DNA of 64,000 nt from an uncultured Flavobacterium sp. (GTDB lineage: Bacteria > Bacteroidota > Bacteroidia > Flavobacteriales > Flavobacteriaceae): assembly GCA_963513565.1 (NCBI GenBank), contig CAUPRE010000017.1, forward strand, positions 7,445 through 71,444, read 5' to 3'. Shown here piece by piece: positions 24,169-63,456 of this stretch; positions within the stretch are counted from its first letter, which is position 1; every line of letters starts with the position of its first letter. Both the position numbers and the translations under genes were made by a program. Below the pieces are notes generated by a model that was not told where the DNA came from, ran no database searches, and saw only the letters and a list, made by a program, of their open reading frames with translations.

Positions 24169-24843
24169 TTATTTATAGTAGTAATTTAACTCTCTCAACT
24201 TATCAATAAGAGAGTTTTTAAATTTGACATAAGAAGGTAATTTTTCTAATTCGGAAATTTCAATTTTTTGACCAATAATTTGATACAAATCAGAAATATT
24301 TAACACTCTATTTCTTCTTCTTTTTGGCAGATCTTCTTTAGACAATCTAATTATATTCTCAATTAGACTTTTGGGATTCGTTATCGCTTCTGGGTTAAGA
24401 TGAATACCTAATTCCGCATCGGTTTTTTCTATTCCAATTTCTTCTTTCAATAGATTTTTATCTGCTAACATCCAAGATTCGGTCATTTGAATTGGAACAA
24501 TTGCTACAATGTGTTTACAATGCATATCATCTTGTAACAAAAGATTTTCTTTAGCAGGAACTATTTTTGATTTAAAAATTAAATCATCAGTTGTAGCATC
24601 AGAATCAGTATGAACGAATAGAAACAAAACACCAAACTTATCAAAAGCAAATCTTGAAGCTTCAATAATCTGTTGATTAAAATTCAATCCAGATTTATTG
24701 ATCGTAATAACCTCTACTTTTGTTTCAAATTCTCCTGCACAATCAAACACAACATCTATTAAAGTCCTTTCGACAACGCTAGATAAAAACCTGACATCAG
24801 TTGTTCCTTCTGTAAAAAGACCCGCAAGAATAAAATTACTCAT
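24169..24843 (-). CDS. Toprim-like (DUF4276-like) putative nuclease, partner of the upstream ATPase
   Basis: 224 aa. The N-terminal LFTEGTTD (Glu12) and FVHTDSD (Asp80-x-Asp82) form a Toprim-type Glu + DxD signature. There is a 3-nt gap to the ATPase ORF. Confidence 0.6.
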   Translation of the reverse strand: MSNFILAGLFTEGTTDVRFLSSVVERTLIDVVFDCAGEFETKVEVITINKSGLNFNQQIIEASRFAFDKFGVLFLFVHTDSDATTDDLIFKSKIVPAKENLLLQDDMHCKHIVAIVPIQMTESWMLADKNLLKEEIGIEKTDAELGIHLNPEAITNPKSLIENIIRLSKEDLPKRRRNRVLNISDLYQIIGQKIEISELEKLPSYVKFKNSLIDKLRELNYYYK

Positions 24844-24846
24844 ATA

Positions 24847-26247
24847 CTAAAAATTTGTCTCTTCAAATTGAGCAGTTTGCAAATAATCATTAACTATTGC
24901 CAAGGTTAACTTCCTGTCTTGTTCAGAAAAAATTAAGCGTAATTGTAAAAGTGAATTATCTTTTATTACCGGACTTATTTTTGTAGAATTTATTTTCAAT
25001 CTATCACCATTAATATCTGAAATTGACGTTCTCATCTGTGCGTACCAAATACTAACGTTTTTATCATTTTTCCAAGTATCCATATTACCAACTAGAACCG
25101 GAGAGTGAGTATTTACTATTACCTGTCTTAAAGGAATTTCTACTTCATTAAAATCAACACTAAGATCTTTTAATAATTCAGTCATTGCTCTAATTCTAAA
25201 AGGATGTATACCATTTTCTGGCTCTTCAAAACATAATAAACCAGTATGCTTTTCATCAAACTCTAAAATACACAAAGCTAAAATTCTTAAAGTCCCTTCT
25301 GACAAAACTCTGGAAGAAAACTCTTTTTTATCAACATCTTTAAGTTTAATTAAATACTGTTTGTTCTCATTGTCATCAACTACATCAACTTCTGTAAAGT
25401 TTGGCAAAAAACTATTAAGCTTTCTCGATATTTCTTTCAATGAATACTTATCATTTTGTTTAATTCTAAACAATGCAGCTGCTAAGTTTTTTCCACTAAC
25501 AGAAATTGTATCTTCTCCGTTGTTTTTACTTGTTGCCTGACGCAAATCTTCAGGGTTTAATTGCAAAAACTTCCAGCTCTTCATTTCTTCTTTAGCAGCC
25601 AAAACGTGTGGAAAATCGATTGTGTCAAAACTGCTCAAAACAGTTCTCGTTGCATTACTTAGAGGAAATCTTCTTTTATTACCTGTTGTACCATCTTGAG
25701 GAACTTGAATAATATCTAAATTATTTTCATTAACAGTTTCAATATATGGTATTCCTCTTTTACCTGTTCCAACTTTTGGCCTCCAATACTCTAAAGATTT
25801 CTTAGGTATGCTAATACTTACCCATATGTCATCTTGATGATTTAATTTTAATAGATTCTCTTTTGAAACGACTAAATCTTGAATCCCTGATACGTTTGTA
25901 ATTCTTTTAATTGACAACTCATATCTCAATCTTGTATATTTTAATTTAGCCTCATTACCCCAAGCATCTTTTATGTTTTTATTAACCAACATTTCTACAA
26001 CAAATTCCATTTCTGTTGCGTAGTTGTCATCACCATATTGCGTAAATAATTCGATAAACTCACCTCTTTGTTCACCAAAAGCCCTTTTTAAATTATCGGT
26101 TTCTGCTAATCTTGATAATAATGTTAATGCGTCAAATAAATTACTTTTACCAGAAGCATTAGCACCAGCAATCACAGTAAAAGGAGCAAATTCCATTTCA
26201 AAATTATGAAAGGACTTAAAGCCATTTATTTTTATATATGTTATCAT
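24847..26247 (-). CDS. AAA_15/AAA_21 (ABC/SMC-like) family ATPase, putative defence-system component
   Basis: Walker A GANASGKS (aa 28-35), signature-like LSEGT, Walker B LLCFEEPENGIHP and H-loop NTHSP. The N-terminus I.I.NFKSF is typical of OLD/AriA/GajA-type ATPases. Confidence 0.75.
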   Translation of the reverse strand: MITYIKINGFKSFHNFEMEFAPFTVIAGANASGKSNLFDALTLLSRLAETDNLKRAFGEQRGEFIELFTQYGDDNYATEMEFVVEMLVNKNIKDAWGNEAKLKYTRLRYELSIKRITNVSGIQDLVVSKENLLKLNHQDDIWVSISIPKKSLEYWRPKVGTGKRGIPYIETVNENNLDIIQVPQDGTTGNKRRFPLSNATRTVLSSFDTIDFPHVLAAKEEMKSWKFLQLNPEDLRQATSKNNGEDTISVSGKNLAAALFRIKQNDKYSLKEISRKLNSFLPNFTEVDVVDDNENKQYLIKLKDVDKKEFSSRVLSEGTLRILALCILEFDEKHTGLLCFEEPENGIHPFRIRAMTELLKDLSVDFNEVEIPLRQVIVNTHSPVLVGNMDTWKNDKNVSIWYAQMRTSISDINGDRLKINSTKISPVIKDNSLLQLRLIFSEQDRKLTLAIVNDYLQTAQFEETNF

Positions 26248-29462: not shown

Positions 29463-29482
29463 TATTATTTTTATTATTAGCT

Positions 29483-29551
29483 AATCCTGCTATCCGCTAT
29501 ATCTATTGTGGCGAACCCCGCTACAATAGGATGCCGCTACTATCAGGGCTA
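29483..29551. repeat. family D element (reverse orientation)
   Basis: The reverse complement reads tagccctgatagtagcggcatcc-[tattgtagcggggttcgccacaata]-gatatagcggatagcagga. Same flank-hairpin-flank layout as 42039, 50796 and 55524. Confidence 0.75.
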
Positions 29552-29562
29552 GGTATTATCTG

Positions 29563-40432: not shown

Positions 40433-40522
40433 GGGCGTCTCCCAAGGGCCGGGCTATCCGTTCCCGCTTTTTTTCTTGATAAAAAAATCAAGAAAAAAGA
40501 GCTCCACTACTATCCCTCACGC
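40433..40522. repeat. family C variant (GGGCGTCT...GGGCTATCC...[ttcttgat..atcaagaa hairpin]...CTATCCCTCACGC)
   Basis: Shares both termini and the GGGCTATCC word with 5092..5205 and 62021..62135, but has a different internal hairpin. Confidence 0.65.
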
Positions 40523-40610
40523 GGGCATTGTGCAATACAACACCATTTTTGTTTCAATGAAACGGTTCCGTTTTTATAATTCACAACGGAATGAATTTTC
40601 CTCTTACATC

Positions 40611-41914: not shown

Positions 41915-42038
41915 ACTTTTTCTTGTCGCTAAGGCGCTAGAGCGCAAAGCTTTTTTTAATTTATATTTTCTGACATTCCTCTAGTTTGAGGAAATACATT
42001 GCTTTTTTTGTTTCTAAATAAGCCTATTGCTGGCTATT

Positions 42039-42109
42039 TAGCCCCGATAGCAGTGTAAATCCTTGTGTGCCGGGGTTCGGCATACAAGATTGTAACGGAT
42101 AGCGGGAAC
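42039..42109. repeat. family D element between the SAM riboswitch and its regulated ORF
   Basis: tagccccgatagcagtgtaaatcc-[ttgtgtgccggggttcggcatacaa]-gattgtaacggatagcgggaac. Confidence 0.8.
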
Positions 42110-42175
42110 GTTGATGCCAAAAAAGCGGCAATGATGCGCTCATTCAATTATTTAAAAATGTATCGGGAAAGGGGT

Positions 42176-42200: not shown

Positions 42201-42203
42201 GTT

Positions 42204-42307
42204 GTTATCTATCCGCGCTATGCTTGGTAGAATGTAGCACCTTCTTTAAAAAAGTAAAGGGTTGCTAAGGTTTCATCGGGTCTTTTCCCTCCGCCTTTCG
42301 TGATAAC
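42204..42307 (-). promoter_or_regulatory. SAM-I (S-box) riboswitch aptamer upstream of the Hcy-MT/metH/metF genes
   Basis: The minus strand reads GUUAUC-acgaaAGGCGGAGGGAaaAGACCCGAUGAAaCCuuAGCAACCc...gaAGGUGCUAcAUUCua...GAUAAC, matching the SAM-I conserved core and P1 helix. Confidence 0.8.
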
Positions 42308-42383
42308 TTTCAATAAAAATAGGAACGGTGCAAAGTAACGACATAACGCTAACAATTGCAAGTGTTTTTTTAGAAGTTTAAAA

Positions 42384-50527: not shown

Positions 50528-50795
50528 TTCATTTTAAAATCTATTACCCTATCGGTTTTGTAGATTACTTCGCAAAAGTACTACTATTTTCTAAATCACA
50601 AAATTTATTTTAAAAAATTAGCGTTGTTTTTACATCAAAAAATCAAGTCCATTAAGAAATTAAAAGATTTATTGTTAAAGTCATAGGCGTAACATCTATT
50701 CTTTTTATGAATAGCAATGAAGAATGAAGTCTTCTCTCATTTTCATAAAGTAACATAAAGAAGGAAAAGTGAATTAAAAAAGCAGACGTCTTTAA

Positions 50796-50873
50796 TAGCC
50801 CCGGGAGTAGCGGCATCCTTTTTTGTCTCGTTTTTTTTTTACGAGACAAAAAAGATATAGCGAATCACGGGAG
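50796..50873. repeat. family D element in the cysH/tauE divergent spacer
   Basis: tagccccgggagtagcggcatcc-[ttttttgtctcg-t10-acgagacaaaaaa]-gatatagcgaatcacgggag. Confidence 0.75.
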
Positions 50874-50954
50874 GAGACGTGATGAAAAAAAAATAATTTG
50901 TGCTTCAATAAAATTTAATTCTACTTAATCGATAGGATTATTATAAATTTATTT

Positions 50955-50979: not shown

Positions 50980-51762
50980 ATGGATTTTCAAATAGGTTTT
51001 GTTATTGCAGGTTTAGTGGTAGGTTTTGTTGTTGGACTAACAGGTGTTGGCGGGGGTTCATTGATGACTCCTATACTGCTTTGGTTTGGTATTCCTCCAA
51101 CAACTGCTGTAGGAACTGATTTATTGTATGCGGCTTTTACCAAAATGGGAGGGATATTTGTTCACAATAAAAAAAGCAATATCAATTGGACCATTGTGGG
51201 ATGGCTTTCGCTAGGAAGTTTACCTGCTGCTGCTGTAACCTTATGGATTTTAGAAAGTTTTAAGGCTGATATTTCGGGACTGAATAGCATCATCAAATAC
51301 AGTCTAGGCTGGGCGTTATTGTTCACCTCTATTGCGATACTATTCAAAAAGAAATTATTGGTATTTTCTCAAAAACACGCGGGAGATAAATTTCATAGTG
51401 AAAGCAAGACTCAAAATTTTCTAACTGTAGCTATTGGAGTGATGCTAGGTGCAACAGTGACATTGACGTCTATTGGTGCTGGTGCCCTAGGAACTGTAAC
51501 GCTGTTTTTTTTGTATCCACTTTTACCTACCCCAAAATTAGTAGGTACAGAAATTGCGCACGCCGTTCCTTTAACGCTAGTGGCTGGCTTTGGTCACGCA
51601 TCGATGGGTAATATGGACTATGGGCTATTAGTGCAATTATTAATGGGGTCTCTACCAGGGATATATATAGGCAGTATGCTCAGTGGAAAAGTTCCTGATT
51701 TATTGCTAAGAAACGCCATAGCAATGATGCTGTTTTTTGTTGGATATAAATTGATTTTTTAA
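50980..51762 (+). CDS. sulfite exporter TauE/SafE family membrane protein
   Basis: 260 aa, about 8 TM segments, with internally duplicated G-rich helices (GLTGVGGGSLMTP / LTSIGAGALGT). Divergent from the cys operon. Confidence 0.8.
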   Translation: MDFQIGFVIAGLVVGFVVGLTGVGGGSLMTPILLWFGIPPTTAVGTDLLYAAFTKMGGIFVHNKKSNINWTIVGWLSLGSLPAAAVTLWILESFKADISGLNSIIKYSLGWALLFTSIAILFKKKLLVFSQKHAGDKFHSESKTQNFLTVAIGVMLGATVTLTSIGAGALGTVTLFFLYPLLPTPKLVGTEIAHAVPLTLVAGFGHASMGNMDYGLLVQLLMGSLPGIYIGSMLSGKVPDLLLRNAIAMMLFFVGYKLIF

Positions 51763-51822
51763 TTCTCTCATACCACTAAATAAATTTCTAAAACCGAAAC
51801 GATAACTGATAGCATAACAAAG

Positions 51823-51875
51823 AACCGCAAATTCGCAAATTTTAAAACCTAGTTAAAATTTGTGAATTTGCGGTT
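51823..51875. terminator. bidirectional terminator hairpin (aaccgcaaattcgcaaatttt / aaaatttgtgaatttgcggtt)
   Basis: An inverted repeat of about 21 bp with one mismatch, lying between the tauE stop and the Rrf2 3'-end relic. Confidence 0.7.
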
Positions 51876-51880
51876 AATTT

Positions 51881-51975
51881 TTAAAAAGCAATGTCTGCCA
51901 AAGTGTTGTTCTCCAAAATCATTAAAGTATTGTCACGCACTTCCATCATCAGTTTACGAACGGCGCAAGTGGCTT
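51881..51975 (-). pseudogene. orphan duplicate of the last 92 nt + stop of the Rrf2 regulator gene
   Basis: 91 of 95 nt are identical to 54336..54430. All four differences are synonymous in the Rrf2 reading frame (tgc/tgt, act/acc, ttg/ctg, act/acc). No upstream coding continuation. Confidence 0.85.
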
Positions 51976-52080
51976 AGTATTTTAAAGACTCATAAAAGAG
52001 AGCTCTTTAACTAGAAAAGATAATAAAAAAATAGTGCCTCTTTAATCAAAAATTTTAATTATCAAGGACTGCATCCCAAA

Positions 52081-52956
52081 TTAATTTTTCAAGAATGTTA
52101 TACTTGCTTTTTCGTTTGACTTTAAACTTGTTTTTAAATCAAATGTTCTTTCTCCATCAACAATTTTAATAGTCACAGTATTTAATCCTTTATCCCCTTG
52201 ATTCAATGCTTCTATTTTAAAAATGTGATTCCCTTTACTAAGAAACAAAGGGATTCTTTTCTTTGTATTTAGTATAGTATAGTTAGATAAAATAATCCTA
52301 TCATCTTGATATAAATTTATCTTATCTCCATCTTCATTTTCTGAATCAAAAATTTCTATTTCAACTGATTCAGACTTCACAAAAACATTTAAATTTTGAT
52401 CTTTAACTAAATTGTTCACTTTTAGGCTATCGAGTAAACTAATTGGATTAGCCTTTGCTTTAGTAGTAACATCCAATTTCTTGCTCTTCTGTATTTTATT
52501 ATTTACTTTATTAAGTACTTTATAAATTCTCTCTGATCCTACTAATGTAATTGTACCATTAATACATTTTCTTTTATTTTTATAAAGTCCCGTAAAATCA
52601 CCATCGATTTTGGTTGTCTTGTCATTAAGCTTCACTTTTCCATTAAAATTAACAAAACAAAAACTCTTTTCTGAAAATGTAGATTTTGTGTATAAAATAT
52701 CATCTTCTTTAAATTCTAAAATCTTATTTTTATTATCAAAAGTACCTGAAATGGAGTTTTTAGTTTCATTATCACCACCCAAATCAGTAATTGAATATCC
52801 ATTTATTTTATTATTAGATAGTTCAAAAACCAAGCGATAGGTTATTAAAGTTTTATCATTTCCATTCAACTTCAAACCACCAAAAAACTCGAATCTTTTT
52901 TGTGAATAATTTTTGAAACAAAAAAATAGAAGAATTAAAAAACATATTTTTCTCAT
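52081..52956 (-). CDS. hypothetical exported protein (291 aa)
   Basis: Signal peptide MRKICFLILLFFCFKNYSQ. Lys/Asn-rich and very AT-rich coding sequence. I recognise no family. Confidence 0.55.
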   Translation of the reverse strand: MRKICFLILLFFCFKNYSQKRFEFFGGLKLNGNDKTLITYRLVFELSNNKINGYSITDLGGDNETKNSISGTFDNKNKILEFKEDDILYTKSTFSEKSFCFVNFNGKVKLNDKTTKIDGDFTGLYKNKRKCINGTITLVGSERIYKVLNKVNNKIQKSKKLDVTTKAKANPISLLDSLKVNNLVKDQNLNVFVKSESVEIEIFDSENEDGDKINLYQDDRIILSNYTILNTKKRIPLFLSKGNHIFKIEALNQGDKGLNTVTIKIVDGERTFDLKTSLKSNEKASITFLKN

Positions 52957-52972
52957 AAATCAAATTTAAATT

Positions 52973-52980
52973 TATATTTG
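52973..52980 (+). promoter_or_regulatory. candidate -7 box TATATTTG (TAnnTTTG) upstream of the first TM2 gene
   Basis: Motif match 31 nt upstream of the ATG at 53012. Confidence 0.3.
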
Positions 52981-53011
52981 CAAGTATAACCTTAATTTTT
53001 TAATTTAAATT

Positions 53012-53386
53012 ATGAAACTAAAATTTTTATTATCAATGATTGCGTTGTTATTTATAACATCGTTTTCTACGTATGCATCATTCCCTGTTGAGCAAGCAAC
53101 AAAAAACGGGACAACTCAAAGTACAATTACTAAATCTACTAATGATGATGATGAACTCTCATCTCCAGCTGCAGCTGCATCAGGCAAAAGCCAAGTTACA
53201 GCCTTAATTCTTGCTATTTTAATAGGGGGAATTGGAATTCATCGTTTTTACTTAGGCTATACTTGGCAAGGTATAGTTCAACTATTAACACTAGGCGGTT
53301 GTGGTATTTGGTCATTAATAGATTTAATTAGAATTATTACTGGCGATCTTCAACCAAAAAACGGTAACTATACCGAAACGCTATAG
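53012..53386 (+). CDS. TM2 domain-containing protein
   Basis: Signal peptide, Thr/Ser-rich linker, then the TM2 hairpin GKSQVTALILAILIGGIGIHRFYLGYTWQGIVQLLTLGGCGIWSLIDLIRI. Confidence 0.8.
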   Translation: MKLKFLLSMIALLFITSFSTYASFPVEQATKNGTTQSTITKSTNDDDELSSPAAAASGKSQVTALILAILIGGIGIHRFYLGYTWQGIVQLLTLGGCGIWSLIDLIRIITGDLQPKNGNYTETL

Positions 53387-53388
53387 TG

Positions 53389-53703
53389 ATGATTAAAACT
53401 ACTGTATTTTATATAAGAGTCATTATTACAATAATATCTCCTTTCATTCTATTATTTTTACCAGCTAATTATTTTGATCAAGGAGATAGTATTTGTTTAT
53501 CAAAAATGCTTCTAAACTATCAATGTTATGCCTGTGGATTAACAAAAGCAACTATGCATTTTATTCATTTTGAATTTGAAAAAGCATGGAGTTACAATAA
53601 ATTAGTCTTTATTGTTGTGCCAATGTTGGTTCCATTATGGGCAAAAGCAATTTATGAAATACAAGGTAAAAAGATGCCTGGTGTATTAGGTAGACTTACT
53701 TAA
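53389..53703 (+). CDS. DUF2752 domain-containing membrane protein
   Basis: The CLSKMLLNYQCYACGLTKA motif resembles the C-x-G-x-x-CP-x-CG-x-TRA pattern of DUF2752. The ATG lies 2 nt after the TM2 stop codon. Confidence 0.6.
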   Translation: MIKTTVFYIRVIITIISPFILLFLPANYFDQGDSICLSKMLLNYQCYACGLTKATMHFIHFEFEKAWSYNKLVFIVVPMLVPLWAKAIYEIQGKKMPGVLGRLT

Positions 53704-53886
53704 TGCATTATTCAAAACATTACTAGCACTCTAGAAATAGAGTGCTTTTTTTTTAATAAAAAAAGTTGAGGAATTAAATCTAGTTTTCAATTCGAAAATA
53801 ATTTTTAAAATTAAGTAAAAAAAATTGCGAAGCTAAGTTATTTATTGTTAATTAGTTGTATCAAATAATCTTTAATAAAAACTTTT

Positions 53887-54261
53887 ATGAGAAAACAATT
53901 TTTATTTTCGCTGATTGTATTATTTTTCATCTCTTCGTTTACCTCTTACGCCTCATTTCCTGTAGAAAATAGAGCAACAAGTAATACGACAAGTCAAACC
54001 ACCATTACAAATGCAACTGAAAAAGAAGAGCTTGTTTCACCAGCAATACTTGGTTCTGGCAAAAGTCAAGTTGCAGCACTAATTCTTTGTGTTTTTGTGG
54101 GAGTACTAGGAATACATCGTTTTTATCTTGGCTATACTTGGCAAGGTATTGTTCAATTACTCACTTTGGGAGTATTTGGAATTTGGACATTGATTGATCT
54201 TATCAGAATTATTACTGGTGATTTACAACCTAAAGGAGGAAGTTACTCCAAAACTTTGTAA
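53887..54261 (+). CDS. TM2 domain-containing protein (paralog)
   Basis: The C-terminal 70 aa are nearly identical to 53012..53386 (GKSQVAALILCVFVGVLGIHRFYLGYTWQGIVQLLTLGVFGIWTLIDLIRIITGDLQPK). Confidence 0.8.
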   Translation: MRKQFLFSLIVLFFISSFTSYASFPVENRATSNTTSQTTITNATEKEELVSPAILGSGKSQVAALILCVFVGVLGIHRFYLGYTWQGIVQLLTLGVFGIWTLIDLIRIITGDLQPKGGSYSKTL

Positions 54262-54302
54262 TAAAAACATTATAAAAAAACCACTCATAAACAATTTTAT
54301 AT

Positions 54303-54330
54303 AAAAATGACTGCTTAGGCAGTCATTTTT
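54303..54330. terminator. bidirectional terminator (aatgactgc-ttag-gcagtcatt)
   Basis: A 9-bp stem with flanking A5/T5 runs between the convergent TM2 and Rrf2 genes. Confidence 0.7.
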
Positions 54331-54335
54331 ATACT

Positions 54336-54746
54336 TTAAAAAGCAATGTCTGCCAAGGTGTTGTTCTCCAGAATCATTAAGGTATTGTCACGCACTTCCA
54401 TCATCAGTTTACGAACGGCACAAGTGGCTTCGTCATTGCAATCGTCGCAGGGTTCATAAAAATTGTGACTAGCACAAGGCAATAAGGCAATTGGTCCTTC
54501 GAGTATACGATAGACTTTGGCCATATTGATGTCTTTGGGTTCTTTGATTAAATAGTATCCGCCGCCTTTTCCTTTTTTGGCACCCAAAAAACCCGAATGA
54601 CGCAAAAGCAATAAAATGCTTTCCAAAAACTTCAAAGAAATATGCTCTGCTTTAGCAATTTCGGCAATTTGCACAGGTGTATTGTCCTTTTGTCGTGCCA
54701 AAAAAGTAAGGGCTTTGATTCCGTATTTCGTTTTTTTTGAAAGCAT
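54336..54746 (-). CDS. Rrf2 family transcriptional regulator (Fe-S cluster-ligand cysteines present)
   Basis: N-terminal wHTH MLSKKTKYGIKALTFLA and a C-terminal Cys cluster LPCASHNFYEPCDDCNDEATC. Confidence 0.88.
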   Translation of the reverse strand: MLSKKTKYGIKALTFLARQKDNTPVQIAEIAKAEHISLKFLESILLLLRHSGFLGAKKGKGGGYYLIKEPKDINMAKVYRILEGPIALLPCASHNFYEPCDDCNDEATCAVRKLMMEVRDNTLMILENNTLADIAF

Positions 54747-55395: not shown

Positions 55396-55523
55396 TTACT
55401 TTTAATGTCAAAAACCAAATTTACACTTTTAACAAATCAAAACTCAATTATTCTATCGTCTGAATTCGATAAATAGTATTTCTACCATTTTGGATGATAA
55501 CAAAAATGCAAAATCTTTCCTTT

Positions 55524-55601
55524 TAGCCCCGATGGAAGGGAAAATCCTTTTTTGAGTCGATCTTTTTTCGACTCAAAAAAGATTGGAATGACAGCGGGAA
55601 C
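55524..55601. repeat. family D element
   Basis: tagccccgatggaagggaaaatcc-[ttttttgagtcga-tctttt-ttcgactcaaaaaa]-gattggaatgacagcgggaac. Confidence 0.8.
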
Positions 55602-55718
55602 TTTCCCTCCAAAAAAGCCAAATCTTTCTGCTCCAAATTAATCGTTTTACTATAATATCCCTTTTATAACCACAAAACCCACAGCCGAAAGCGTGGGTTT
55701 AAAATTGTTATAAAACTA

Positions 55719-56318
55719 TTAAAGATCAAAAACGACTTTTGCCTTAAATTTTAAGTTTGGAAAAACGGCACTTTGGAGGAGGCTTTTTTCTGTAATCGGT
55801 TTTAATCCTACGAATCTATCGTTTTCGAGAACGTAGATCAAAATCATTTTTTCCATAGGATTAACTATCCAATACTCTTTAACTTTATTTTCTTGGTAGA
55901 GATCAAATTTCAAATCCATTTCTTTTGTGGAATTCCCTGGCGAAAGAATTTCGATGATCAAATCGGGAGCGCCAATACATCCTTTTTCATCTAATTTATT
56001 ATGATCACAAATAACACATAAATCAGGTTGAACCACAGAAACTATCTGACTATCATCACTACTGTTTTTAAAATCAACCAATCGAACATCAAATGGTGCT
56101 GCATACATTTTACAGGATGTTTTGCGGAAAATTTTATCTAACTGTCTTGCAATTATCCAAGAAATTTCTTGATGATTCCTGCTAGGAGCTGGACTCATTT
56201 TTAAGATTTTCCCCTTAATCAACTCTACCCTTTCCGAGAATTGCCATAGCAAATAATCAGCATAAGTATAACTTCCTTTAGGATCTAATTGATTGATGTT
56301 GTTAATAATAGTACTCAT
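55719..56318 (-). CDS. Uma2 family (DUF820) restriction-endonuclease-fold protein
   Basis: The pattern YTYADYL...ELIKGKI..MSPAPS..HQ...PDL..EILSP.N...D...K...Y...V.EYWIV is typical of Uma2. I prefer the ATG at 56318 because the track start is a TTG. Confidence 0.75.
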   Translation of the reverse strand: MSTIINNINQLDPKGSYTYADYLLWQFSERVELIKGKILKMSPAPSRNHQEISWIIARQLDKIFRKTSCKMYAAPFDVRLVDFKNSSDDSQIVSVVQPDLCVICDHNKLDEKGCIGAPDLIIEILSPGNSTKEMDLKFDLYQENKVKEYWIVNPMEKMILIYVLENDRFVGLKPITEKSLLQSAVFPNLKFKAKVVFDL

Positions 56319-56418
56319 TTTAACAGCTTTGGAATACAAATTTAATTAAAAAAACTTTCACAAAACATAACCCACAGCTGAAACCGTGGGCTATTACTAT
56401 AATTCAAAACTTTTGCAT

Positions 56419-58225: not shown

Positions 58226-59313
58226 TTAAACATCAAGCCTTTTTAATTCTTGCTCAATTTCTTCAATGGTAGGCAAGCTACTTTTTAGGTTATCTGGCAA
58301 ATTTTCCGTTAGTTTCAATTCGCTTATCCCTATAGGTTTGTTTATGTCTCGTAAAGCAAATTCAGCTTCTAAATTACTTTTATCTTTACAAAGCAAAATA
58401 CCAATAGTTGGATTGTCGTCATTTTGCTTGACCAAACTATCCACTGCTGACAAATAAAAATTTAATTTCCCTGCAAATTCTGGTATAATTTGGTGTTTTT
58501 TAATTCAACCACCACATAACATTTAAGCCGAGTATGATAAAAGAGCAAATCGATATAATAATCATTATCGGCAATAACCAAATGATATTGTTGTCCAACA
58601 AATGCAAATCCTTTACCCAATTCTAGCAAAAACTTAGTGATATGTTGTACCAATTGGTTTTCGATATCTCGTTCTCTATATTTTGTATCTAAAGCAATAA
58701 AATCAAAAACATAAGGGTCTTTTAGCGTTTGAATGGCTAAATCTGAAAAAGGTTCAGGCAACGTATTTTTGAAATTAGTTATCGATTTGCCTTGTCTTTC
58801 ATATAAGTTTGATTTAATTTGAAGGTCTAAAATATCTCTACTCCAATTGTTTTCAATGGTTTGTTGGATGTAAAAAACCGCTTCATTTGTATCCTTTGAT
58901 TTCGTAAAAATAAGGATATTATGTCCCCAAGGCACTTGAATTAACAGTTGCTGCATTTTGTTTAATGACTGATTACTTGAGCTTTGCAACTCAGGGCTTG
59001 CTAGTTGCTCCATTAGTGCAACAGCTTGTTGCACTAAATCGGAAGCGTAAAATTTATAAAATTGCTTACAATTAAAAAGGTTTCTTCTTGAAAGTCCTTT
59101 CATTTCAGGAAACTCTTCCTTTAAGTCTTGTGCTACCTTTTCAATTAATTTGCTTCCCCAAACGCTTTCTTTTTCACTAATTGATTTTCCTAATTCCCAA
59201 TAAAACGCAATCAGCTCACTATTTACGGCAATTGCCGCTTTAATTTGTGAAGAACGAATTTTGCTTTTTAGCTCAACAAGCCAATTTTTATATTCAGTAG
59301 TTGTTATTTCCAT
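58226..59313 (-). pseudogene. yhcG: PDDEXK nuclease YhcG-like (DUF1016) gene with a single frameshift
   Basis: The N-terminal 283 aa (MEITTTEYKNW...) and C-terminal 75 aa are in different frames. Shifting the frame near 58488 restores ELKNTK-x-IPEFAGKLNFYLSAVDSLVKQNDDNPTIGILLC, the canonical YhcG core. Confidence 0.7.
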
Positions 59314-59318
59314 AATAA

Positions 59319-59373
59319 GCCCCTCCACAGCCCTCCTAAAAAGGGGAGGGAGCATAGACTGGAGGTAAGTCTT
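59319..59373. repeat. family B element + gactggaggtaagtctt hairpin, 6 nt upstream of the yhcG ATG
   Basis: Direct repeat of 58141..58195. Confidence 0.85.
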
Positions 59374-63148: not shown

Positions 63149-63221
63149 ATCTTTGTTGTTGTTGATTTGTATTTGGAATATTAGAAAGAAAAACTAGTGG
63201 AGACTAGAGGTATTTTGTTGC

Positions 63222-63322
63222 GTTATCTTTTTCGCTAGGCGAATAGAATGTAGCACCTTCTTCGATTTCCGAAGGGTTGCTAAGGCTTCATTGGGTCTAA
63301 TCCCTCCGCCTTTCTTTATAAC
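63222..63322 (-). promoter_or_regulatory. SAM-I (S-box) riboswitch aptamer upstream of metX-thrA
   Basis: The minus strand reads GUUAU-aaagaaAGGCGGAGGGAuuAGACCCAAUGAAGCCuuAGCAACCcuucgg...gaAGGUGCUAcAUUCua...AGAUAAC. A weak hairpin (CUAGU-n4-ACUAG + U5) follows at about 63186..63208. Confidence 0.8.
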
Positions 63323-63456
63323 ATTTCAATACGTTTGTGAACTTAAAGCTGCAAAGTAACTATTTATTTTTTTAACACGCAAATTTTTAAAACAACAACC
63401 AAGTTACAAATCATTTGCAAACTTGGTTATTGTTAGCTATTAGAATCTAGTATTCT

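Follow-up and report, generated by a model that had tools for sequence, protein, structure and literature searches.

Between the gene for an Rrf2-family transcriptional regulator, which sits upstream of sulfate-assimilation genes, and the convergent gene tauE, a contig of an uncultured Flavobacterium sp. (CAUPRE010000017.1; the 64,000 nucleotides analyzed are termed the window) carries an islet of four genes encoding a secreted protein (sec291), two TM2 proteins and a DUF2752 membrane protein. The islet is bounded by two copies of the 3′ end of the Rrf2 gene. The functional copy completes the regulator, and the other copy, which we call the orphan, lies on the tauE side. Occupied and empty alleles of this site coexist in one species complex. 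On the evidence, an integrating mobile element is less likely than an old scar of recombination within a segregating accessory allele that homologous recombination has maintained and shuffled. Our preferred reading, to which we give a probability of about 0.6, sees the islet as an insertion allele that segregates at a hot spot between Rrf2 and the cys operon, and not as an autonomous or site-specifically mobilized element. It would be a fairly ordinary case of bacterial genome shuffling.

The duplicated Rrf2 end and the empty site

Pairwise alignment and a script both confirm the 95-bp duplication described in the initial annotation, with 91 of the 95 bases identical. The four mismatches lie at repeat offsets 21, 35, 45 and 84, all are transitions, and each is synonymous in the Rrf2 frame (TGC/TGT, ACT/ACC, TTG/CTG and ACT/ACC). 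Orphan and functional end have the same translation, ATCAVRKLMMEVRDNTLMILENNTLADIAF followed by the stop. Four random changes in the repeat would all be synonymous with P = 0.0023, or P = 0.016 if only transitions are allowed. A repeat search stretches the pair to 99 nt (51880-51978 and 54335-54433, 95% identity, spacing 2455 nt). The observation of a repeat with synonymous-only mismatches is correct and is not due to chance. We also asked if the orphan is a piece of a longer paralog, a result that the initial annotation said would refute its reading, and this was ruled out: an in-frame stop codon lies directly upstream of it and the similarity goes no further.

The two copies differ in what follows them. 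The orphan retains the native downstream context, a terminator hairpin and then tauE, while the functional copy runs into a hairpin carried by the islet. In empty-site genomes a hairpin of the native type (51826-51872) lies directly 3′ of the intact Rrf2 stop codon, which precedes the same hairpin and spacer as the orphan does in occupied genomes. The proposal that the orphan is the displaced native end, and that the functional copy has an end supplied by the islet, is borne out by this arrangement. The islet is thus flanked by direct repeats made of the 3′ end of a target gene that is itself left intact, as an integrative element would be.

Loci used for comparison are numbered with the prefix L. 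A scan with the Rrf2 protein covered 80 species-representative loci (L001-L080), 44 from Flavobacterium and 36 from other genera. All 44 Flavobacterium loci are empty, the gene directly after Rrf2 being tauE, cysH, or a divergent TauE gene that is oppositely oriented, and none has TM2, DUF2752 or sec291 near Rrf2. A second copy of the locus's own Rrf2 end was found in 0/80. The convergent tauE lies 3′ of Rrf2 in 35 of the 44 Flavobacterium loci. It is not there in the other nine, of which five (L002, L011, L012, L014 and L032) have in its place the opposite-orientation divergent gene, encoding a 300-aa TauE-family protein, and four (L004, L007, L009 and L044) have a vacant Rrf2-cysH interval; tauE is beside Rrf2 in none of the 36 loci from other genera. 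The gene tauE is therefore itself a variable occupant, and the Rrf2-cysH interval is a hot spot of gene content.

Closer relatives were reached by look-up of the exact Rrf2 protein, which returned the empty contigs L109 and L112-L117. In L109, L113, L115 and L117 both flanks are 98-99% identical to those of the occupied contigs L099 and L103, and the single Rrf2 end aligns with both repeat copies. What separates occupied from empty alleles is exactly the 2361-bp insert together with one repeat copy. Blocks indexed for the exact Rrf2 protein number 1053, and those for the islet DUF2752 protein 186. The islet is a real insertion relative to the empty Rrf2/tauE junction, as had been proposed from the sequence.

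Probable exchange between repeat copies

The window arrangement, complete with orphan, is shared by Flavobacterium sp. RSSA_27 (L082) and by many metagenome contigs (L081, L089 and L099-L108), which we call population M; orthologous orphans were found in L081, L082, L083, L089 and L099-L107. All 23 repeat copies examined encode one peptide, the exception being the first 24 nt of the L082-lineage orphan, which are eroded. The synonymous-only pattern therefore recurs well outside the window, which supports the proposal that both copies evolved as coding sequence. The L082 orphan differs from its own gene at 11 of 24 positions at the 5′ edge and at five of the other 71 (Fisher P = 6e-5), and these five are all synonymous. 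The eroded 24 nt are what free decay looks like. A freely evolving fragment of the islet's age is expected to be heavily mutated. The orphan is mostly not, which argues for exchange with functional ends.

Haplotypes of the repeat are consistent with such exchange. The orphan of population M is invariant in all 10 contigs that include it, and differs from that of the window at 8/95 sites, all synonymous, CGT versus AGA among them. Functional copies are mosaics. That of L099 has the orphan haplotype but for 1 nt, that of L100 is orphan-like in its 5′ half, those of L089 and L102, from independent projects, are orphan-like over the 3′ 62 nt, and those of L103 and L105 have only GTC AGA in common with the orphan. 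GTG CGT is carried by the functional copies of L101, L108, the window, L082 and L001. The empty-site Rrf2 ends carry the orphan haplotype, that of L109 matching the population-M orphan at 94/95 positions. Judged from these population data, haplotype switch points occur at at least four positions scattered across the 95 nt and are not confined to a short core, and so fit homologous recombination and not strand exchange at a site-specific core. The functional copies hold blocks of the orphan haplotype, and recombination with empty-site alleles gives the same pattern.

Exchange appears to have left a local mark on the gene. For the occupied alleles of population M, nucleotide diversity in successive quarters of Rrf2 is 0.004, 0.000 and 0.008, and then 0.053 in the repeated 95 nt; with the window added the values are 0.013, 0.000, 0.009 and 0.055, and in the empty genomes 0.005, 0.015, 0.010 and 0.027. 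Among the Rrf2 genes of the window and of five population-M genomes, the last 95 nt contain 12 of the 19 variable sites (P = 2e-4), and none of the sites alters an amino acid. The repeated 95 nt hold several-fold more synonymous diversity than the rest of Rrf2. Across 14 full-length Rrf2 genes (the window, occupied and empty members of population M, and L082) there are no amino-acid differences, and the Rrf2 proteins of the window, population M and L082 are 100% identical. The exchange thus generates no protein diversity of the kind a silent-cassette system would produce.

Three orphan-type variants (GTC, ACT at codon 16 and ACT at codon 24) are each common to two of the three orphan lineages and are absent from functional copies of the GTG-CGT type. 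This suggests that the two repeat copies may already have been different alleles at the start, which fits either of the founding routes weighed below. Continuing homologous exchange between orphan and functional ends is the simplest reading of the haplotypes. The initial annotation had concluded that one copy probably arrived from another genome; a single foreign arrival is not needed, since exchange with functional alleles can regenerate the synonymous-only pattern continuously.

The divergence of the islet does not resemble that of a recently transferred unit. In backbone genes the window, population M, L082 and the empty L001 form one tight clade (89-93% nucleotide identity), other species having at most 83% identity to the clade; in two of four backbone genes L082 is nearer to L001 than to the window. 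Window and L082 islets are collinear, at 82.6% nucleotide identity versus 88-90% for the flanks. Synonymous divergence (dS) between window and L082 is 0.34-0.38 for metY and cysH, 0.45-0.48 for Rrf2, TM2b and DUF2752, and 0.93-1.20 for TM2a, sec291 and tauE. Islet dS (0.46-1.09) is hence no lower than that of the backbone (0.34-0.38), and the islet is not more similar between hosts, as horizontal spread would make it. These values point to a recombination breakpoint inside the islet, between DUF2752 and TM2a, and indicate that the orphan-bearing arrangement is old. The ratio of nonsynonymous divergence to dS is 0.07-0.15 for the four islet genes (0.085 for sec291), a sign of purifying selection on the islet and of functional genes. 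Given its divergence and its internal breakpoint, the islet appears to behave as ordinary chromosomal DNA of a recombining population.

The lower GC content noted initially is real (27.4% in the islet against 35.7% in the window). We rejected it as a sign of foreign origin or recent import. Wherever we find the module, its GC content is 5-10 points lower than that of its flanks, and it is equally GC-poor relative to its flanks between rpoD and pnp, a site discussed below. Low GC at every site makes it a property of these genes, not evidence of recent import.

The cluster, its products and neighboring features

The same genes occur elsewhere. We inspected sec291 neighborhoods in 13 further lineages; a metagenome scan with sec291 gave five loci only. 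Between rpoD and pnp, two genes that are not within the 64-kb window, the cluster is found in L086/L087, L088 (F. salilacus), L097 and L120 (F. solisilvae), with DUF2752 and TM2 on one strand, divergent from sec291. In L119 its neighbors are an OmpA-like gene on one side and a gene for a XerC/D-type recombinase on the other. At the Rrf2 site, L084/L085 have the order Rrf2-TM2-sec291-cysH with no duplicated Rrf2 end and no tauE, L094-L096 have Rrf2-TM2-sec291, 33 nt and then tauE, again with no duplicated end, and L098 has Rrf2-hairpin-TM2b-like-sec291 with no orphan within 339 nt downstream and a 232-nt gap between the TM2b-like gene and sec291. The initial annotation had named the same four genes without a duplicated Rrf2 end in related genomes as evidence that would tell against its integration reading, and these Rrf2-site lineages come close to that, with fewer genes.

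The trio of the window is closest to the rpoD-pnp trio of L097 (82% amino-acid identity for TM2a, 74% for DUF2752 and 65% for sec291), and TM2b is a separate lineage common to L082 and L098. A neighbor-joining tree of 121 sec291 proteins is nearly a star, with a sequence from the canonical rpoD-pnp site nested among those from the Rrf2 site, and is compatible with one or with several relocations of the cluster to the Rrf2 site. These comparisons show that the cargo is a conserved chromosomal gene cluster of Flavobacterium. DUF2752 is absent from several versions of the cluster, and the minimal conserved pair is therefore TM2 plus sec291. As side observations, TM2a and TM2b form direct repeats (237 nt, 72% identity) on either side of DUF2752, and several lineages (L084, L094, L098 and L120) have a single TM2 gene and no DUF2752. 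Recombination between the TM2 paralogs could yield such single-TM2 versions lacking DUF2752.

Searches against Pfam confirm the gene content proposed for the islet. TM2a and TM2b match TM2 (PF05154) at 73.1 and 72.9 bits (gathering cut-off 27.9, E ~2e-20), and the DUF2752 protein matches PF10825 at 53.6 bits (cut-off 27). The TM2 proteins, which are 69% identical in amino-acid sequence, have by sequence a signal peptide, a Thr/Ser-rich linker and a two-helix hairpin with an HRF loop; the DUF2752 protein has two hydrophobic segments flanking a C-x10-C-x2-C loop. Public gene calls in relatives start DUF2752 at the equivalent of the ATG at 53389, 2 nt past the TM2a stop, and TM2a and DUF2752 form an operon. 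The sec291 family has at least 235 homologs, and every match named to genus is from Flavobacterium. An AlphaFold2 model of sec291 is confident (pLDDT 88.6) and predicts a signal peptide, an N-terminal eight-stranded β-barrel, a helical linker and a C-terminal β-sandwich. A Foldseek search against the PDB gave no match at E < 0.001, with a weak avidin-like resemblance of the barrel and a weaker MmpS5-like one, probably of the sandwich.

The absence of an integrase also holds: none of the four islet open reading frames (ORFs) has an integrase domain in Pfam, and no recombinase was found in the islet or its immediate flanks. The four islet proteins have no match among the PADLOC defense models. 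The TM2 proteins match eight PHROG families of unknown function, and a scan of viral contigs found no DUF2752 relatives. Rfam gave no significant match in the islet, STnc370 being sub-threshold and over the hairpin only. A literature search for DUF2752, PF10825 and PF05154 returned nothing on bacterial function, in keeping with the initial statement that none is established. The best sign of joint action is that TM2, often with DUF2752, stays linked to sec291 in three chromosomal contexts, which suggests that the products of the cluster may act together. They would probably form a small complex of the envelope or inner membrane with a periplasmic or secreted partner.

Table 1. Features of the islet and its borders (positions in the window)
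Feature	Position	Strand	Basis or remark
TauE/SafE family exporter (tauE)	50980..51762	+	Pfam; convergent with Rrf2 and orphan
Native bidirectional terminator hairpin between orphan and tauE	51826..51872	+	Lies after the intact Rrf2 in empty-site genomes
Orphan copy, last 92 nt plus stop of Rrf2	51881..51975	-	Alignment, script, repeat search
sec291, secreted 291-aa protein	52081..52956	-	Signal peptide; no Pfam family
TM2a	53012..53386	+	Pfam TM2; divergent from sec291
DUF2752 membrane protein	53386..53703	+	Pfam DUF2752, E 2.4e-14
Terminator-like hairpin closing the TM2a-DUF2752 unit	53725..53746	+	
TM2b, second TM2 paralog, own transcription unit	53887..54261	+	Pfam TM2
Islet-borne hairpin right after the functional Rrf2 stop	54299..54334	-	Ends Rrf2, and TM2b on the other strand
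Functional Rrf2 3′ end, second repeat copy	54336..54430	-	Alignment, script, repeat search
Rrf2-family transcriptional regulator, 136 aa	54336..54746	-	Pfam

The islet-borne hairpin includes the sequence AGTATAAAAATGACT, and L098 has a hairpin of the same type after its Rrf2. On the other side, the orphan-tauE hairpin and 60-nt spacer of the window (51762-51880) are 88% identical to positions 9064-9183 of L082, between sec291 and tauE genes that are near synonymous saturation in the same comparison (proportion of synonymous differences 0.57-0.60). This conserved segment reflects either a short recent recombination tract or constraint on a 3′ untranslated region (UTR).

Within ~2-3 kb on each side, the flanking ORFs, identified through Pfam or through synteny with related loci, encode CysD, CysH and TauE on one side and Rrf2, a 172-aa protein, Uma2 and MetY on the other. 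The Uma2-family putative endonuclease (55719-56339, minus strand) matches the PADLOC candidate defense family PDC-S03 (E 1e-50). Of the related loci, only L001 shares this gene with the window, placed between metY and the gene for the 172-aa protein, which makes this another variable spot. Five Flavo-1 RNA (RF01705) matches exceed the gathering score, at 29479-29554 (-), 40443-40531 (-), 42036-42113 (+), 50793-50878 (+) and 55521-55605 (+), and all five in the 64 kb fall between ORFs of at least 150 aa. Their positions differ among close relatives: L082, like the window, has the tauE-cysH copy, and L001 is without it but has a copy between Uma2 and the 172-aa gene. Flavo-1 therefore behaves as a dispersed, insertion-polymorphic repeat. 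SAM riboswitches (RF00162) lie at 42202-42309 (-), adjoining the Flavo-1 copy at 42036-42113, and at 63220-63324 (-), both upstream of genes of methionine or sulfur metabolism.

Two further loci in the window resemble defense genes. At 24169-26247 (-), an AAA_21/AAA_15 ATPase (466 aa) is followed by a 224-aa protein with a weak, sub-threshold DUF4276 match; a pair of ATPase and DUF4276-type protein is typical of OLD/Gabija-like or AbiEii-like defense modules. A YhcG/DUF1016 PDDEXK nuclease gene at 58462-59355 (-) seems truncated, encoding 297 aa against 362 aa in L111, and its product matches only positions 2-89 of the 157-position C-terminal model.

Origin of the arrangement and known systems

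We propose that a single old recombination event placed the conserved cluster, consisting of the TM2a-DUF2752 operon, the divergent sec291 and an extra TM2 paralog, between Rrf2 and tauE, and duplicated the last ~99 nt of Rrf2 as it did so. Because the end was duplicated, the gene would have remained intact with a new terminator, leaving the old end stranded beside the native one. Occupied and empty alleles would since have interconverted and been shuffled by ordinary homologous recombination through the flanks and the 95-99-nt repeats, as the mosaics and exact empty sites suggest. Repeated overwriting from functional Rrf2 3′ ends would keep the orphan from free decay. It could occur by recombination with empty-site alleles, in which the stretch is under selection and which share >1 kb of downstream homology, or by intragenomic gene conversion, and the orphan may donate variants back to the functional copy. 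If only changes that have passed selection circulate, the differences between copies will always be synonymous, and the edges of the repeat would erode because exchange needs homology on both sides.

Several points weigh against this proposal. The comparison sequences are mostly metagenome assemblies, so that haplotype phase rests on the assemblers; the assembly k values (119-141) exceed the repeat length, however, and several haplotype boundaries fall within 8-nt shared stretches, which real reads must therefore span. The samples are small, with six occupied and seven empty full-length Rrf2 genes, and exchange with empty sites and intragenomic conversion are not distinguishable in these data. 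Simple double crossovers do not usually leave a duplication of ~99 nt; site-specific integration leaves exactly such a duplication. The cluster is at at least three chromosomal sites, and hence has moved several times by some means. Finally, we ruled out the empty L001 as a simple repeat-mediated pop-out product of the window allele; the spacer between its Rrf2 and tauE genes has no relation to the one in the window and L082 lineages, and is similar to the L006 and L010 spacers.

A candidate for the founding event is the entry of a [Rrf2 end - hairpin - TM2b...sec291] segment from an L098-like lineage into an empty Rrf2-tauE site, which could take place as a circle by a single crossover. This route is favored because empty alleles with the same tauE predominate among carriers of the exact Rrf2 protein. 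The reverse possibility is that it was tauE that moved and not the islet, the orphan being hitchhiking donor DNA. A fragment comprising the last ~99 nt of Rrf2, the native hairpin, tauE and cysH would have come from an empty-type donor into a module-bearing Rrf2 locus, joined by homology at cysH and illegitimately at the other end (homology-facilitated illegitimate recombination). Its topology is simple and makes a circular intermediate unnecessary. A module lacking the orphan does exist at the Rrf2 site, in L084/L085 without tauE and in L098 with the Rrf2-hairpin-TM2b junction; tauE is patchy (absent beside Rrf2 in 36/36 loci of other genera and 9/44 of Flavobacterium) and has the same deep divergence as the sec291-orphan block. 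The sharing of orphan-type variants across orphan lineages likewise suggests an ancestral orphan that was already a different allele, but these variants could be recurrent C-to-T changes. Most contigs with the exact Rrf2 protein are empty and have the tauE allele and hairpin of the occupied ones, so that the islet looks like the extra DNA, and a second step would be required to return the composite allele to that clade. We therefore consider movement of tauE unlikely.

The initial annotation saw in the islet a classic integrating-element footprint and an apparently mobile module. The corresponding explanation is a non-autonomous integrative element, similar to a cis-mobilizable element (CIME), that attaches through a replacement Rrf2 3′ end and is integrated and excised by a recombinase, of the tyrosine or serine type, whose gene lies elsewhere in the genome. 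It would account for direct repeats derived from the target 3′ end, with the native end displaced and a new end and terminator supplied, for exact empty sites in one population, and for a cluster in at least three chromosomal contexts. The islet and its immediate flanks contain no recombinase, although a 64-kb window cannot show an enzyme acting in trans. Also against it are the conserved cargo at the same site without repeats in other lineages, an islet divergence no lower than that of the backbone with a breakpoint inside the islet, and exchange points spread over the repeat instead of at one core. Low GC is intrinsic to the cluster, the viral contigs scanned contain no DUF2752 relative, and PADLOC gave no match. 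The supposed mobile cargo is a chromosomal cluster that is conserved, and other flavobacteria have it between rpoD and pnp or beside xerD. We regard the integrative element as improbable. Less probable still is direct selection on the orphan, as a 22-codon micro-ORF (MMEVRDNTLMILENNTLADIAF) or as an RNA element made of the Rrf2 3′ end, hairpin and spacer in the sec291 3′ UTR. In favor of such selection, the conserved part of the L082 orphan begins exactly at TG ATG ATG with the 24 nt upstream decayed, orphan, hairpin and spacer are 88-93% identical between window and L082 while their neighbors are near synonymous saturation, and the orphan is invariant in population M. The L082 boundary is equally well explained by a short recombination tract that came from an empty-site allele. 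Five synonymous differences between the copies of population M are located 5′ of the ATG, where a micro-ORF would impose no constraint, and for this reason we considered micro-ORF selection unlikely; selection on RNA would not leave variation that is synonymous at the codon level. Across the genus neither hairpin nor spacer is conserved, strains with an empty site lack a separate copy, and Rfam gave no significant match.

Returning to the segregating insertion allele, a bolder extension would treat presence or absence of the envelope module as a long-lived balanced polymorphism, with the ~99-nt duplication kept as an integrase-free recombination handle. The driver might be, for example, phages or predators that put pressure on a surface-exposed complex formed by TM2, DUF2752 and the secreted β-protein. 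The dS of ~1 from TM2a through sec291 to tauE, the coexistence of exact empty and occupied alleles, and relocation to at least three sites are all compatible with this, but we hold it to be improbable. If it were true, the handle would let the cassette drop out precisely and return without harming Rrf2. More generally, a textbook-looking integrative footprint, with duplicated gene end, synonymous mismatches, low GC and empty sites, can arise and persist without mobile-element machinery, which is a caution for island-calling. The locus offers a clear natural case in which recombination keeps a stranded 95-nt fragment gene-like and locally raises synonymous diversity several-fold, and the linkage of TM2, DUF2752 and sec291 gives a starting point for the function of bacterial TM2 and DUF2752 proteins.

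The eukaryotic TM2D proteins (TM2D1/BBP, TM2D2 and TM2D3, the Drosophila TM2D3 orthologue being almondex) share PF05154. TM2a and TM2b resemble them in having a signal peptide, a variable extracytoplasmic linker and a two-helix hairpin with a short HRF loop (DRF in animals). Unlike the TM2D genes, the bacterial ones are linked to DUF2752 and a secreted β-protein, and no functional information transfers.

Islands and integrative and conjugative elements (ICEs) that integrate into 3′ ends supply a replacement gene end, as do the islands that target tRNA and tmRNA genes and ICESt3 in fda, and the CIMEs of Streptococcus are integrase-less derivatives that can be mobilized in cis. The islet is like them in its direct repeats of the target 3′ end, the intact gene, the native end on the far side and the exact empty sites. 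It is unlike them in lacking recombinase and mobilization genes, in carrying a conserved chromosomal cluster as cargo, in diverging at least as much as the backbone and having an internal breakpoint, in its scattered exchange points, and in that other lineages have the same cargo at the same site without repeats. Homology-facilitated illegitimate recombination is known from natural transformation in Acinetobacter and Streptococcus pneumoniae. Such a process would account, free of any recombinase, for a fragment stranded at one junction beside a homologous anchor, although unlike in those cases neither donor nor junction microhomology is identifiable here.

The proposed continuing exchange can be compared with Neisseria pilE/pilS, where gene conversion links an expressed gene to a silent partial copy, and with the concerted evolution of Salmonella tufA/tufB. 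As in these systems, a promoterless partial copy would trade tracts of variable length with its parent gene, giving mosaics and keeping the silent copy gene-like. In contrast to pilE/pilS, the exchanged variants are all synonymous, the 23 copies showing no amino-acid difference, and no phenotypic diversity results; the repeat is just 95-99 nt long, and empty-site alleles in other cells may mediate much of the exchange.

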